DNA of 64,000 nt from Escherichia coli (GCF_030013595.1 NZ_CP122768.1); one strand, 5' to 3'. Counted from the stretch's first letter, positions 45,001-51,000 are shown. Made by a program: the numbers.

Positions 45001-48000
45001 CCGTCGGATTGGTGTTGCCGTCAGGCCAAGCAGATATCTGGCATTCGTTTCCTTCAGAATCGCAGAAAATGAAACCGCGCCAATATGATGGCACTCATCC
45101 ACAATGATTTGCCCATAATTCCTGACCAGAGGTTCAACTTCTCCTTGTCTGGATATGGACTGCACCACCGCAATATCAATATTGCCACAGGGTTTATGTT
45201 TACCTCCCCCGATAATACCAATACTGTCACCGGCCTGCAGAAACACCGCGAGACGCTCCTGCCACTGCTTCAGCAATTCAGTCCGGTGTACCAGTATCAG
45301 TGTATTCACTTTCCGCTTGGCAATCACTGCCGCTGCGGTAACTGTCTTACCAAAAGCCGTTGGCGCACAAAGCACACCAGTGTCATAACGGAGTAATGCC
45401 GAAACGGCCTCTTCCTGCTCCGCTCTGAGGTTTCCCATAAAAACGGCATTACATTCCGTCCCGGCAAATCGTTTATCGATTAATTCTGCAGCAATATTGT
45501 TGTCCCTAAGGAAAGATAATACGCTGTCCAGACATCCCCGGGGCAACGCAATGTGTTGCGGGTAATTCTCCGCACAACCTATAACACGGGGCTTATTCCA
45601 GACTGACATACGCATTGCCTGAGCCTTATAAAACTCAGGGTTCGGAAATGCTGCCAGCCGAATAAGTCGGTTAATCAGCACCTGAGGTAATTGCGCTTTT
45701 TCGAAATAGATCTGGTTTGCCAGCGTGATTTTCAGCGGTTCTGCAATAGAAATATTCAGTCTGTTTCCTGATGATTTTTTCTCTTCCCACGGCGTACCCA
45801 GGTCTTCTTCGTTGATAAAATTCACATCCAGAGGATGGATACTCCCTGTAGCCCGTAATATCGTCGGTTCAATATCCTGCACATTCATCGGGGTCACCGA
45901 TACAAGAAAAGCCCACTGATCAGGATAAGGCTGGAGATTCATATCAACAAAAACGCTTCCCCCCAATTCACGCGGTCTTTTTTGCAGAGGTAACGCTATG
46001 AGATTACCAAATCCCCCTTTTGGCATAGTATCCTGATTAGGAAATAATCGGTCATAAGACCCCAATCGCAGCTGTCGGGTCCGACTACACGTATAGCTAA
46101 TAATAGCAGTCCCCAGACGGCGAGCTTCGCGGGCCGAAACTCGTGAGGCAAAAAATATCCAGACATGCGCCCCCTGACGTGAACGGGATATTTCCAGCGC
46201 AGCAGGTACACCCAGCTCATCACAGGATCGCATGAATGCGGATGCATCCTTCTGCCATTCAGCTTCATCAAAATCAACTGCCAGAAAATAACAGGAATCA
46301 TCTTCCAGCAACGGATACATCCCGACAGTATGGGTACCGGCCAGATGGTGGTAGATGACGAGATCGGATACAGGAATCAACTGACGGTGAGCGCAGTCCC
46401 CACATTTTATCCGGGGTTTACCGCATATTCTCGCCTGCCATTCGTTAGCGCAGGCAGGAGAGTACCCTGATTTGCCGCTGGTTTTACTTTCCCATCTAAG
46501 TGCCCATACATCATCACGCCCACGAAACAACCGACGAAATAATGCAACCTTCTCGTCGGTGGATAATACAGAAACGCGCTGCACAGGAGTCTGCGGTTTA
46601 CGTCGCCATTCAATCCCATGAGCTTCAAGTAATGAGACCAGACGGGCATTTTCTGCCCTCAATGCAGCTAATTCATCACTGTCAGATTTATGAACCATAT
46701 TCGTTACCTGTATCCGATCCACTGAGGCACCACGGCAGAAATTCGGGTCCCCTACACTGATGACAAAGCGCCCCGCCCTCTTCTGCCTATTAACTCAAGC
46801 ACCTCCCAACAACTTACAGAAACTTAATTCTAATACCTAATACAGCTGTAATTCAGTTATGTCGTGGTCGGCCCCGGTTACTTTTTTCGGGAAGCCTGCT
46901 ACGCCTCAGAATAATACCGTGTTCTTTCTGATCCTGTTTGGCCAGATAGCTAAGGGCGTAACGTAAGTCGTCTACCGCAGATTTATCACTATAGTGAATT
47001 ACGTGATCGATACGCACCGGGTATTTGTCTTTAGCCCTGCACAGGTGAAAATAACCCTCCCCTTCCGTGATCCGCCTCCAGATATCTCCCAGTTGCCTGG
47101 ATATCCGATAAGATTTGTTGTGACGTTGCCCATCCAGGTAGCCGATAAAATGAATATGAAGTCCCTTGTTTGACGTATATTCCATTACCCAGTAATATCC
47201 CGCCAGCATCGTTTGGGTTTCACTAAGTAAGCGGTGCATTTCAATACACATACTGTGCCTACAGGAATGACCAAAACTGGGCGTGTCTTTCCTGTAGGCA
47301 AAATCAATTCTGAAAGGTAACAGTTTAGAAAAACGTTGAAACAGACCTTCCATGTGTTCATTCACATCTTTCAGAATCATGAAGTCCATTTCGTAATTGG
47401 GATTAGCATTATACATTTTATAGTCCTTACTTTATAAAAGTTACAGGAAGGTGGAATTACATAAATACTGAGAGTACAGAAACGCCGTACCGCGGCATTA
47501 ATAAACGAGGTAACCAGCAGCACAGACAACCTGATAAAACTGTTTCGTATTACCTCATTACTCCAAAGAGGTAATATTTCAGAGTACAGTAAGACTCACT
47601 TAAACTGAGGACCAGTACGAATTACAATGGTAAAAACACACCTCATAGAATTGAGTTTAAGGAAGTACCATTCAATCACTTACAGGAAGTAATCTGACAT
47701 TCACAAAAGCCAGTATCGGGTAGCCACAGGCAACACCGCTATTAATACTTCTGTACCATTAAGTAAAAACAGCGACCCAGCTTGAGGCCTCTACAGATAT
47801 TTAACTTCACCATAAAAATGATGGTATACAGACCATACCCCACACACCATAAGAATATTATTTCATACAGGAAAGATTATATTTTTTCATACCTATAAAC
47901 TGTAACAGAGCCATAACATACTCTAATAGTGTTCCGGTACGTAACCAGTGTTAAGTGCGTACAAGACAACATAACAGATCACATAACTTCCACTAATAAT

Positions 48001-51000
48001 ACTAATTAACCTAAATTATTTATTGAACACGAAAACAATGAAGGCCCCACCTCACCTCAGACTAAAGCCGACAATATCCTGAGTAACACTCTATCCAATA
48101 GTAAATAGTGGTTACACCAGTTATATTTACTGACTGACCTGTACCAGAGTTTTCTAATACAACGCTGACATGGTAAAGACATTAGTCTCCTCCGCAAGTA
48201 GCAGAGGAGACTATATGTACTCAACGATTAAGTCGTTCAGAGGTCAAAGTTAGGTGCGACACACAACGTTTTTCCCTCAATAACCGGTACAACTCTGTTT
48301 TGTTCATACAGTAAATCCAGTAACCAGTTGATTTTATCCTTTTTCCGGAAACGGTTCGGACCACGCTGTAAAATGTCATTTTTTTTCATACAGAGGATCC
48401 CCTTCTCAATACAATAGCTTTTTATCCAGTTGAAAAGTTCAAGCTCCTCTGGAATGAGTCGCACAGGTACGGTCAGGGCAGAGTTGTCAAAAGTTAACGG
48501 ATTAGACAACCGCACATACTCATTACCGTACCATATTGCTAATTCTCTCGCCATTTCTGCAGTGTAAGGGGAAATCTCCCCCTCTTCACCGCTCGAATGG
48601 TAAATAAGTCCTGCCAGTCTTGCCATATACTCTGCATTTTTAGCAGCATATTCCCGGCAATGTCTTAAAGGCCCCAATCCCCCCAGCTTCGATTCCACAT
48701 CATTGTAATAATCCGTCCAGATTCTGGCAGCCTGAGGAGAAAAGTGAAGGCAACGTCGTTCACCACTCATCGCCAGACTTTCATCAATAAGCTCATTGAT
48801 CCTCTCTTCAAACAAATCCTGATACTGTGATGAATAATTATCTCCGGTTATTATCCTTGTCCCCTGCGTTGATGTTGGTTGACACATCAAAAACCTTGCA
48901 TGATGTCCTGACGTTTTCACAATTTCTTTTTTTCGCGTACAAAAACCTTTGTGGTAAACATCAGGCTGAATCATCACCGATATCGTCAGTCTTGGCTCCT
49001 TCAAATTAATTCCGGGAGATGATTTCCTGTCGATGAAAAGAGAACCTCCATCCCACAAAGTGTTAATAATTCCCAGTTTACTCATGGCCCGGCTGTCAAA
49101 AATTACCCCCCTTCACTGGATACAAGAGCAAAAGAGCGATTGCTATCGGAGTAATATTTTAACATTCCCTCTATCGTTGTCTCATTAAAAATTGTTCGAC
49201 GTATCTGCGGCGGAACAGGAGGTTTATTCAGATGCGTTTCAAGCTCTGATTCTGTTGCCTTGTAATCTTTACCGGCACGAATCTCTTTATGAAATTTTGA
49301 TTCCAGCGCTTTTTGTTTTTGCTCCCATATTTCCTTTTCTGTACTGTAATTCTCAACCAGTTTCGCGTATTCATCCGCCAGGGCTTCATCCCTGAGATAA
49401 AATGCTTTCATAAACACTTTATCCACGGTCGTTTTCCTTTCACCGGAATCAGCCAGAATCAGAGAGTAAAGATTAACAGGCCCATGTAAATTTCCAGGTC
49501 TGCACACGTCAATCTGATTCTGACAGGCAATTGAGATCGCTGTTAATGCGGATGTTGCCACCATAGCCAAAGGTGCCTGTGTATTTTTTTGAGTTTCAAT
49601 TATTGCATTTCTCACCAGCGGTGGTAGTGCATATATCGGATAAGGATTTTCTGGTGCAAGTAAGCACATAAAAGCCTCTCTTTTCATTAATGGGTTAGTA
49701 AAATAGCAGCAAATCCCGCTACAATAGCGAAAATAGCTGCTATTCAGACCTGATGCTCTGAGAAATACAGAGCATTTGTAGATCTGATGTTTAATAAACC
49801 GATAAGGTTAATTCAGTGAAGACTGTATTATTCACCACGAAATATCATTCATATTTCTCATTCTTAATACCTCCGGAAATTATTTCACTAATACCTTTCC
49901 CCCGGTCTTTTCCCTTTCTCGAGAACCATAGTGTAAATATTAACGGCCCCACGTAAATTTCCGGGACTGCATACGTCAACCTGATTCTGACAGGCAATTG
50001 ACATCGCTGTTAATACTGACATTGCAACCAGAGTCAGAGGTACTTGTTTATTGTATTGAGCTTTAATTATTGCCTTCCCTATCATTGATGGTCATGCATA
50101 TACTGAATACGACATATCCGGTTTGATGTAAGGCATAAATGCTTCCTTTTTCGTAATACGTTTCGGTTATAGCAGCAATTACCGCTACAATAGCGACAAT
50201 AGCTGCTCTTTCAACAATGAATGCTGGAAATTCTGTTTATCAATTAAACTTCTGGCTAAATTGTTCTTATGCTTCTTTTTCCTCCTGAGGTGATCACGTG
50301 ATGACAAAAACTTATCTGCTCATGGTCATATCTGAAGAAAGCGTATGTCTCACTTCGTCATTAACACCTTTGACTGCTGATCTGGCAGGTACAGTATGTA
50401 AAGTAAGCCATTCGTCAATAGCTGATGAACGCCAGCCCACAGAACCACTACCAAGACGTACCGGCCTGGGGAAGGTTGCATCGTAGTATTTCGATAACGG
50501 ATTCATTTTTTCGTAAATTGTCGAACGAGATATACCTAACAATTGGCTCAGTTCAGGCATCCGTAAGATGCGTGAAGGAGTCCTGCAGTGTCCGGATTGA
50601 TCTGGCATTTTATCCCCCATAGTGTGGTGAACTGTCGTTACAGTTTGTATTCCCCGGGTAAATTTGTCTGCGTAAAAAAATGGGTTGAGAAAAAAGACAA
50701 TAAATAATTAAAAATCAATATGATAGAAAACGACAGCATTAGTGTTATTTTACTTTTCCCTTATCGCTGTCGATTCTCATTATCATTCATGGCAAAAAAA
50801 CAGCAAAAGAGGCCCTGGTAATGACTCCTGTCAGTAGTACATGTGTTTTCGATAAATGAACCAATGGCTTTTCGTGAATTTCCAGGGAGCGTAAAAAGCA
50901 AATCGTTTTCCGGGCAGGTCGTTTGATGTGAGTACGAAGTGTCAGATTGTTGCGCTCAATGCGCCGGGTAAATATCTTGCCGACAAGATGCTTATCCTGT

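Follow-up and report, generated by a model that had tools for sequence, protein, structure and literature searches.

A conserved non-coding interval upstream of a Gp2-like (YagK/YfjJ-family) gene in a common Escherichia coli genomic island, and a 22-nt signature associated with it

In a 64,000-nt stretch of Escherichia coli DNA (GCF_030013595.1, NZ_CP122768.1; the window, for which all positions are given unless another record is named), a yfjI gene of the DUF3987 family and a gene of the YagK/YfjJ family, here called Gp2-like, are separated by 820 bp of DNA devoid of long open reading frames (ORFs). This interval lies within a gene array that a first-pass annotation, made from the sequence alone, had described as CP4-57-like, and it had been proposed to hold a small RNA (sRNA), a decayed gene, or a regulatory or att-like region. 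The claim that neither strand contains an ORF of 60 aa or more at 47417-48236 was confirmed: no such ORF was counted on the plus or the minus strand, and the longest candidates are one of 55 aa that begins with a start codon (48057-48224, minus strand, TTG start) and a stop-to-stop frame of 59 codons. The flanks are also as claimed, with the YagK/YfjJ-like gene on one side and the stop codon of the DUF3987/YfjI gene at 48237 on the other. The gap is AT-rich, with a GC content of 0.355-0.39 vs 0.43-0.50 in its flanks, and its sense strand is asymmetric in composition (T 305, A 209, G 178, C 128).

Some form of the interval was found in 1,562 of 5,426 complete E. coli genomes, at a median of one copy per genome, in islands of the SpLE1/OI-43/48 type. 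Sequence identity over the 820 bp reaches 100% in O26, O103, O145 and other strains and 99.6-99.8% in O157, and the size of the gap among relatives ranges from 690 to 1,335 bp. Its counterpart in O157 Sakai (NC_002695.2, 1377415-1378234) is the ECs_1303/ECs_1304 intergenic region of element SpLE1, and EDL933 carries it in both OI-43 and OI-48, at 1,063,549-1,064,368 and 1,463,700-1,464,519 of CP008957.1. Across approximately 1,600 homologous copies, the only annotation under the interval is the edge of yfjI, present in some records. Literature searches on the yfjI/yfjJ intergenic region, on ECs1303/1304 or on the "TOTE conflict system" returned nothing, and the review on the insertion sequence (IS)-excision enhancer IEE is silent on the DNA upstream of iee. 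The likeness to CP4-57 stands for the gene families and fails for the gap itself, as the yfjI-yfjJ gap of K-12 CP4-57 has only 152 bp, is not homologous to that of the window and lacks the 22-nt motif described below. These 820 bases form a genuine spacer, conserved and non-coding, in a common E. coli genomic island.

Alignment of the window with its relatives indicates that the gap is composite, being formed, in the direction of the genes, by a yfjI-linked block, a short motif (the Gp2-box), a variable segment and a Gp2-proximal block (Table 1). As a whole it evolves faster than its flanks, with 76-98% identity and many central indels vs mostly 94-100% identity in the flanking genes. The yfjI-linked block is missing or replaced when another gene is located upstream (replaced in L049, L050, L051, L053 and L057); in some relatives yfjI gives way to an unrelated gene of 560-610 aa, and the gap there measures 1,209-1,335 bp. 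The Gp2-proximal block, aligned separately (alignment A3), stays with the Gp2-like gene whatever is upstream, so that in relatives without yfjI the matches are limited to positions 1-356 or 1-505 of the query. It ends in a Shine-Dalgarno sequence, AAGGA (47424-47428). The variable segment in between is present in the window in the shortest version seen, with relatives carrying 130-400 nt more.

Only two stem-loops in the gap are significant. The first corresponds to the hairpin that the first-pass annotation had placed at about 48183-48211, and it is indeed present on the minus strand, with a boundary some 2 nt away from that estimate. Its minimum free energy is -29.2 kcal/mol vs -10.1 +/- 2.7 in shuffled sequences (z = -7.1), and none of 200 shuffles was as stable. 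With 7 G-C pairs among its 13, it is a stable, G+C-rich stem-loop following a stop codon, as expected for a terminator. A weak U-tract, AAUGUCUUUACC, comes after it; the tail, AUGUCUUUAC, has 5 T in 8 positions and passes a lenient terminator scan, with no uninterrupted U-run. Three substitutions found within this hairpin in L004 preserve pairing of the sense strand through G-C or G-U pairs. The most plausible interpretation of this hairpin is a 3' stem-loop belonging to yfjI, either terminator-like or mRNA-stabilising, and not a separate element. The second is an inverted repeat within the Gp2-proximal block, which folds at -14.3 kcal/mol (z = -4.7) on the plus strand and with z = -2.4 on the minus strand. 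It is conserved in alignment A3 with one-sided C-to-U changes and is followed on the plus strand by UUUCAG; it may act as an operator-like palindrome or fold as a stem-loop, possibly forming the 3' end of an antisense transcript.

A profile scan for Gp2-like proteins in one genome per species yielded 43 loci, in which YfjI is usually missing and an AT-rich, ORF-free stretch upstream of the gene is the rule. Nucleotide comparison of the gap with these loci singled out the Gp2-box, which in the window contains a near-palindrome, AATT(A/T)AGGTTAATT, followed by TATTAT. Its family-wide consensus is AATT(A/T)AGGTTAATT(A/G)(A/G)TAT(A/T)AT. The box occurs in a single copy in the window, and 0 copies are expected in shuffled sequences even when 3 mismatches are allowed. 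It is found on the strand of the gene upstream of Gp2-like genes whose products share 35-100% identity (35-60% for the distant ones), in Escherichia, Citrobacter, Yersinia, Serratia, Enterobacter, Lelliottia, Buttiauxella, Brenneria, Edaphovirga and Budvicia. Moreover, a scan of metagenomes for the exact 22-mer retrieved 80 loci; 68 of these had enough downstream DNA, and in at least 66 of them the box is followed by a Gp2-like gene on its own strand. After the box, at the distance from TATTAT that would be expected of a transcription start site, a purine-AGT sequence is conserved. To judge from these sequence comparisons, the box is a previously undescribed 22-nt signature of the regions upstream of YagK/YfjJ-family genes across Enterobacterales, and we consider it the main new result of this analysis.

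The distance between box and gene falls into two classes, one of 125-270 nt and another of 620-1,160 nt, to which the E. coli types belong. Members of the short-distance class have, after the box, a leader-like stretch of 125-180 nt with recurrent hairpins. Genes of this class (L033-L040 and about 20 metagenome loci; columns 157-180 of alignment A4) share an invariant stem of 8 bp, TTCCTTTG-N8-CAAAGGAA, in which the Shine-Dalgarno sequence is sequestered, and a hairpin upstream of it (e.g., CAUCCC/GGGAUG or CCAUUCC/GGAAUGG) is kept in most members despite its changed sequence. Hairpin 1 of the class was retained in about 15 of 18 unique sequences, as assessed by per-sequence folds only, because the registers assigned by MAFFT differ among subgroups; as the antisense strands fold equally or more stably, the strand cannot be inferred from these folds. 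In another class, P0021, whose Gp2-like proteins are about 65% identical to that of the window, 5-8 tandem copies of a 13-nt repeat with the consensus ACCCTGTAATTCT begin within 18 nt after the box. This iteron-like array was observed at 6448-6542 of L075 and also in L046, L067, L071 and others, and is absent from the window. Finally, the box is also present in intergenic DNA of Erwinia jumbo phages of the genus Machinavirus (Caitlin, ChrisDB and pEa_SNUABM_9), with identity over 22-31 nt; in Caitlin it appears twice, in consecutive intergenic regions.

Table 1. Positions of the features discussed in the text (window coordinates, except for the phage records in the last three rows).
Feature	Position	Strand	Remarks
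iee (IS-excision enhancer) gene, AEP-TOTE primase-polymerase/superfamily 2 (SF2) helicase	44338-46722	-	794 aa
Gp2-like (YagK/YfjJ family) gene	46853-47416	-	187 aa; 'inovirus-type Gp2'; predicted HUH nuclease; owner of the conserved part of the gap
Antisense promoter and start	47170-47205	+	TTGACG-17 nt-TAATAT at 47170-47198, start at 47205; promoter scan and EDL933 Cappable-seq
ORF-free interval between yfjI and the Gp2-like gene	47417-48236	-	All flanking genes also on the minus strand
Gp2-proximal conserved non-coding block	47417-47790	-	About 370 nt; E. coli variants all at least 81% identical
Inverted repeat, TATTACCTCATT/AAAGAGGTAATA	47548-47576	either	12 bp, 5-nt loop; perfect in several relatives
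Variable, indel-rich segment between box and conserved block	~47791-47995	-	76-89% identity, many gaps
Gp2-box, AATTTAGGTTAATTAGTATTAT	47996-48017	-	22 nt
yfjI-linked block (yfjI 3' untranslated region)	48018-48236	-	219 nt; 86-98% identity to yfjI-bearing variants
yfjI stem-loop	48183-48213	-	13-bp stem, 5-nt loop; 24 nt past the yfjI stop codon
yfjI (DUF3987) gene, upstream neighbour, 3' end in the gap	48237-49687	-	Frameshifted near 49112
AlpA-family regulator gene	50312-50620	-	
Gp2-box, phage record L059	10735-10757 and 11418-11440		
Gp2-box, phage record L063	6464-6486		
Gp2-box, phage record L148 (Caitlin)			gp276/gp277

For the transcriptome check that the first-pass annotation had proposed, we used the published Cappable-seq data of EDL933, which cover eight conditions (PMC10469882, supplementary files 6 and 7). 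Antisense starts at 1064580(-) and 1464731(-), each located 211 nt into a Gp2-like gene, were detected in 8 of 8 conditions and read into the gap. No gene-associated start was recorded within 250 nt upstream of the Gp2-like gene in any of them; a weak start 15 nt inside the gene was detected in 2 of 8 conditions (PMC10469882). In the window, the antisense start corresponds to position 47205 on the plus strand, exactly 7 nt past the promoter predicted by the scan, so that prediction and mapped start match to the base. The sequence of the antisense RNA complements the Gp2-like gene over its first 211 nt, its start codon and its Shine-Dalgarno sequence; it has the opposite-strand start and the overlap with the translation start of the target that are expected of a cis-antisense RNA. 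Given the position of this start, the left part of the gap would be transcribed from its plus strand, the RNA opposing the start codon, the ribosome-binding site and the proximal leader.

Several kinds of element were searched for in the gap with negative results. In six-frame open frames from 14 gap variants, no match to Pfam or PHROGs was better than E = 0.05, and a long, uninterrupted ORF that begins with a start codon is lacking in all of these variants. The Gp2-proximal block shows no codon periodicity, its variable columns being distributed 48/40/44 by phase (p = 0.70), while the same test detected a third-position excess in the adjacent Gp2-like gene (12/6/34, p = 3.6e-6). No homologous annotated gene was found for the gap in phages or plasmids, and the gap has no match in phage records. 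The first-pass suggestion of a decayed gene was rejected on the absence of Pfam/PHROGs matches and of codon phase, together with the lack of annotation in the copies. That of an att-like site was likewise discarded within the window, where no identical word of 14 nt or longer is common to the gap and the remaining sequence and ARAGORN found no transfer RNA gene, the far end of the island lying outside. Repeat searches, including Tandem Repeats Finder, revealed no tandem repeats, iterons or origin repeats of the type of P4 or of phage-inducible chromosomal islands (PICIs) in the gap, but only short two-copy direct repeats; with no tandem array and no shared word of that length, a repeat or mobile element was excluded. 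The pentamer CTGTA is modestly enriched on the sense strand of the gap, with 7 copies vs 2.2 +/- 1.4 expected, a number reached in 1 of 300 shuffles. Covariance models of Rfam 15 gave nothing over 47417-48236 either at E <= 1 or at gathering level, which excludes a known RNA family. Elsewhere in the window, gathering-level matches were obtained for Esr41 (2257-2330, minus), STAXI RNA (25534-25685, minus), the 5' ureB sRNA (33179-33457, plus), RtT (55144-55278, plus) and a single CRISPR-DR4-like repeat (55381-55408, minus).

The Gp2-like protein of the window matches the Pfam families REP_ORF2-G2P and YagK_YfjJ_C, in both cases under the curated cut-offs. In the family alignment (A1), the motifs HxH and YxxSYLAK and a C-terminal RGRPR AT-hook are conserved, the RGRPR region being the most conserved of all, and H86, H88, Y152 and Y156 are each conserved in at least 90% of members. 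The gene next to the gap thus encodes a protein with the His-x-His and Tyr residues that would be catalytic in an HUH initiator. The AlphaFold model of the protein, with a predicted local distance difference test (pLDDT) score of 90, has as its best PDB matches the nuclease domains of parvovirus NS1 and adeno-associated virus (AAV) Rep, with probabilities of 0.9-0.97 and template modelling (TM) scores of only 0.30-0.38. In Escherichia albertii (L007), the Gp2-like gene at 4998-5558 has an in-frame stop (…HSMCM*IYRLL…), and yfjI there is just 39% identical to that of E. coli, yet the box and the proximal block are kept. As for the other neighbours, the yfjI gene of the window has a 1-nt deletion near 49112 relative to O26 11368, leaving ORFs of 194 aa and 282 aa, and it is intact in L001, L003, L004 and L005. 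In Sakai SpLE1, the AlpA gene is ECs_1302 and the Gp2-like gene ECs_1304; the counterpart of iee there is ECs_1305, the 786-aa IS-excision enhancer IEE, and the present RefSeq name for the iee product is "TOTE conflict system AEP domain-containing protein".

Taken together, these data lead us to favour, with a probability of roughly one half, a reading of the gap as a non-coding control region in which the terminator of yfjI is joined to a long region controlling the Gp2-like gene from upstream. The stem-loop 24 nt past the stop codon would end the yfjI transcript, stabilise it or both, insulating the DNA downstream. The remaining 600 nt or so, beginning with the Gp2-box, would serve as control DNA ahead of the Gp2-like HUH gene, with iee next. 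The Gp2-box would be the cis site that controls the Gp2-like-iee pair, most likely as a protein-binding promoter/operator region, and candidates for its binder may be the AT-hook of the Gp2-like protein itself or the AlpA-type regulator of the island. After the box, a long, fast-evolving, G+U-rich untranslated spacer would be transcribed as part of the leader, followed by the conserved 370-nt block up to the ribosome-binding site. In this allele, a constitutive antisense RNA would run from inside the gene over the ribosome-binding site and into the gap. With such an antisense RNA, a long spacer and no proximal promoter, the Rep-like gene should stay nearly silent until the island is activated.

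Support for a control region comes from the lack of coding capacity and from the way in which the two blocks segregate, the 5' block following yfjI and the 3' block following the Gp2-like gene even after replacement of yfjI. The EDL933 data, with a constitutive antisense start and no start in the 250 nt before the gene, also count in its favour. The regulatory option of the first-pass annotation is likewise favoured by the hairpin after the stop codon, the widely conserved box and the conserved non-coding block next to the start codon. A promoter/operator role of the box is supported, at the level of sequence comparison, by its fixed orientation and by the purine-AGT conserved at start-site distance after TATTAT, as well as by the 5'-untranslated-region-like stretch of the short-distance class that ends in a putative Shine-Dalgarno-sequestering stem. 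Moreover, the invariant RGRPR AT-hook appears suited to the AATT tracts of the box.

Nonetheless, a number of observations weigh against this interpretation. The box contains TATTAT with no -35 element, and the promoter scan did not call it as a sigma-70 promoter. The TG of an extended -10 is lacking in the E. coli-type box and is present only in the non-E. coli classes, and the -10 of some relatives reads TGTTAT, TTTAAT or TGTAAT, with G or T at the second position. The resulting leader of 580 nt, which would reach 1,160 nt in relatives, is unusually long. The boxes of the Erwinia phages are oriented opposite to the flanking genes, with no Gp2-like gene nearby, and the box may be a signal shared by phages and islands. 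As to structure at the RNA level, the joint fold of 12 E. coli variants by RNAalifold had a covariation term of only -1.59, which amounts to almost no covariation, in a set too similar (at least 81% identity) for covariation to be really testable; the 4 pairs with compensatory changes all belong to one weak hairpin. In the window allele, the internal terminator-like hairpins (z = -0.1 and -0.9) and the Shine-Dalgarno hairpin are at the level of shuffled sequences. Finally, the -35 hexamer of the antisense promoter, TTGACG, exists only in the 'YTSNK' allele (window, UTI89, O157 and O26), other alleles having TCTGGT-like sequences, so the antisense RNA is not a feature of the family and may be incidental.

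As the main alternative, the gap could be a cis origin for the adjacent HUH protein, acting as a rolling-circle double-strand origin or as the origin of transfer (oriT) of the excised island, a proposal that we hold as tentative and on the unlikely side. The Gp2-box would then be the recognition or nick site, and the spacer would contain accessory binding sites and a single-strand origin. Such a role is suggested by the HxH and Tyr motifs of the adjacent protein and by a modelled fold whose nearest relatives appear to be origin-binding nuclease domains, and also by the invariance of the box while the protein diverges to 35% identity, as happens with conserved nick sites. The freely variable distance between box and gene (125-1,160 nt) and the CTGTA enrichment point in the same direction, and in the P0021 class the box and the array of 13-nt repeats resemble the nic and bind loci of pMV158-type plasmids. 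The tail of the E. coli-type box, TTATTAGTGGA, is also similar to what we take to be the nick sequence of the Ff protein gpII, TTTAATAGTGGA. In addition, the Gp2-like protein and AlpA are listed in a preprint among the core genes of transducible Pseudomonas islands (10.1101/2024.08.29.610337). Against an origin, no stable DNA hairpin forms at the box in 4 of the 5 classes folded (z from 0.05 to 1.8; z = -2.1 in the P0021 class), and the gap of the window holds no tandem or iteron array. The Pfam matches and TM-scores of the Gp2-like protein are low, as described above, and the hairpins of the short-distance class, one of them sequestering the Shine-Dalgarno sequence, suggest control at the RNA level downstream of the box. 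In any case, origin and promoter/operator functions are not exclusive, as the binding sites of initiators often double as operators.

Comparison with known systems shows parallels and differences that bear on this question. The control regions of rolling-circle plasmids such as pMV158/pLS1 and pT181 are also non-coding DNA directly upstream of an HUH initiator gene, with a conserved recognition sequence, an antisense RNA over the translation start of the initiator and short direct repeats, the latter found here in relatives only. They differ in that here the putative recognition sequence is not in the loop of a hairpin, no array of direct repeats exists in the window and the antisense promoter lacks conservation; in addition, the spacer is 5-10 times longer and the setting is a chromosomal island. 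The intergenic region upstream of gene II in the Ff phages (M13/f1/fd) is likewise a long ORF-free interval preceding the gene of a nicking initiator ("Gp2"), which starts with a terminator hairpin and holds the recognition site of the initiator, putative in our case. Unlike the gap, with its two significant stem-loops, the Ff region is a series of large, defined hairpins; moreover, gpII belongs to a different family, and the phage morphogenesis module is lacking at the island of the window. P4-like and PICI satellites, which have AlpA-type activators, and the islands linked to transfer-messenger RNA, which have a Gp2-like-AlpA core (10.1101/2024.08.29.610337), share a backbone of integrase, AlpA-family, DUF3987/YfjI and Gp2-like genes with the island. 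By contrast, no iterons of the P4 or other types were found in the window, and there are no packaging or capsid-remodelling genes nearby. In position, the cis replication region of P4 is similar, being located just after its helicase-primase gene.

Two further explanations seem unlikely to us. According to one of them, the functional product would be the cis-antisense RNA from 47205 (+), repressing the Gp2-like gene in the manner of the counter-transcripts of rolling-circle plasmids, and the ORF-free DNA would be largely its template. The detection of its start in all conditions at both EDL933 copies, 7 nt after a TTGACG-17-TAATAT promoter, is in agreement with this proposal, as is the coverage by the RNA of the start codon and Shine-Dalgarno sequence within the first 211 nt of its target; the plus-strand stem-loop at 47548-47576 with its UUUCAG could end an RNA of about 375 nt. 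Nevertheless, the restriction of the -35 element to one allele means that the promoter is not conserved in the family, antisense starts are pervasive in the data set, with 5,967 antisense transcription start sites (asTSS) in total (PMC10469882), and this RNA accounts for the left third of the gap only. The other explanation, to which we assign an equally low probability, is that the box acts as a portable recognition element, linking the islands either to a trigger from outside or to the HUH nuclease that they encode. In one form, it could be the nick or binding site of an unrecognised rolling-circle or transfer module of SpLE1-type islands. In another, it could be a promoter-like signal shared with phages, as the 3' part of the box resembles promoters of single-subunit phage RNA polymerases; given this likeness and the presence of the box in Erwinia jumbo phages, infection could switch on the Gp2-like-iee module.

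We give still less credit to an independent sense-strand sRNA running from the box to a terminator near 47765-47820. Two terminator-like sites exist on the minus strand about 170 and 215 nt past the box, and the hairpin preceding CUGUUUUUAC has a few compensatory changes among variants (columns 86-107). However, both hairpins are no better than shuffled sequences in the window allele, and the putative sRNA falls in the most variable, indel-rich part of the gap. Rfam contributed no match to it either, and the known sRNA of OI-43, Esr41, maps elsewhere. The sRNA option of the first-pass annotation finds no support in a known RNA family and almost none in covariation; what speaks for it is the published, allele-specific antisense start that reads into the gap. 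Lastly, the many central indels and the varying length among relatives could be expected of the remnant of a protein gene, of an inserted mobile element or of an att-like recombination site, but in view of the negative coding, annotation, copy-number, shared-word and transfer RNA results presented above we regard this as very improbable.

Regarding its biological meaning, the interval is an unannotated feature of a fairly ordinary kind, intergenic DNA of a control or origin-like type ahead of a Rep-like gene, and it belongs to the backbone of an island present in about 30% of E. coli genomes, including the major enterohaemorrhagic E. coli (EHEC) lineages. The cargo of this island includes iee, by which IS excision and genome rearrangement are driven; the same window also holds the loci for urease and Esr41. 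The family-wide 22-nt signature, the strong insulator hairpin and the mapped antisense transcript offer handles on how the Gp2-like-iee pair may be switched. If the box were only a promoter/operator, the result would be an ordinary one, an unannotated regulatory spacer. Should the box prove to be what the HUH protein recognises, widespread "cryptic P4-like" islands would acquire a replication or transfer origin. And if the box were a portable recognition element, the spacer of 600-1,300 nt would be a hub for replication or induction of the island rather than inert DNA.

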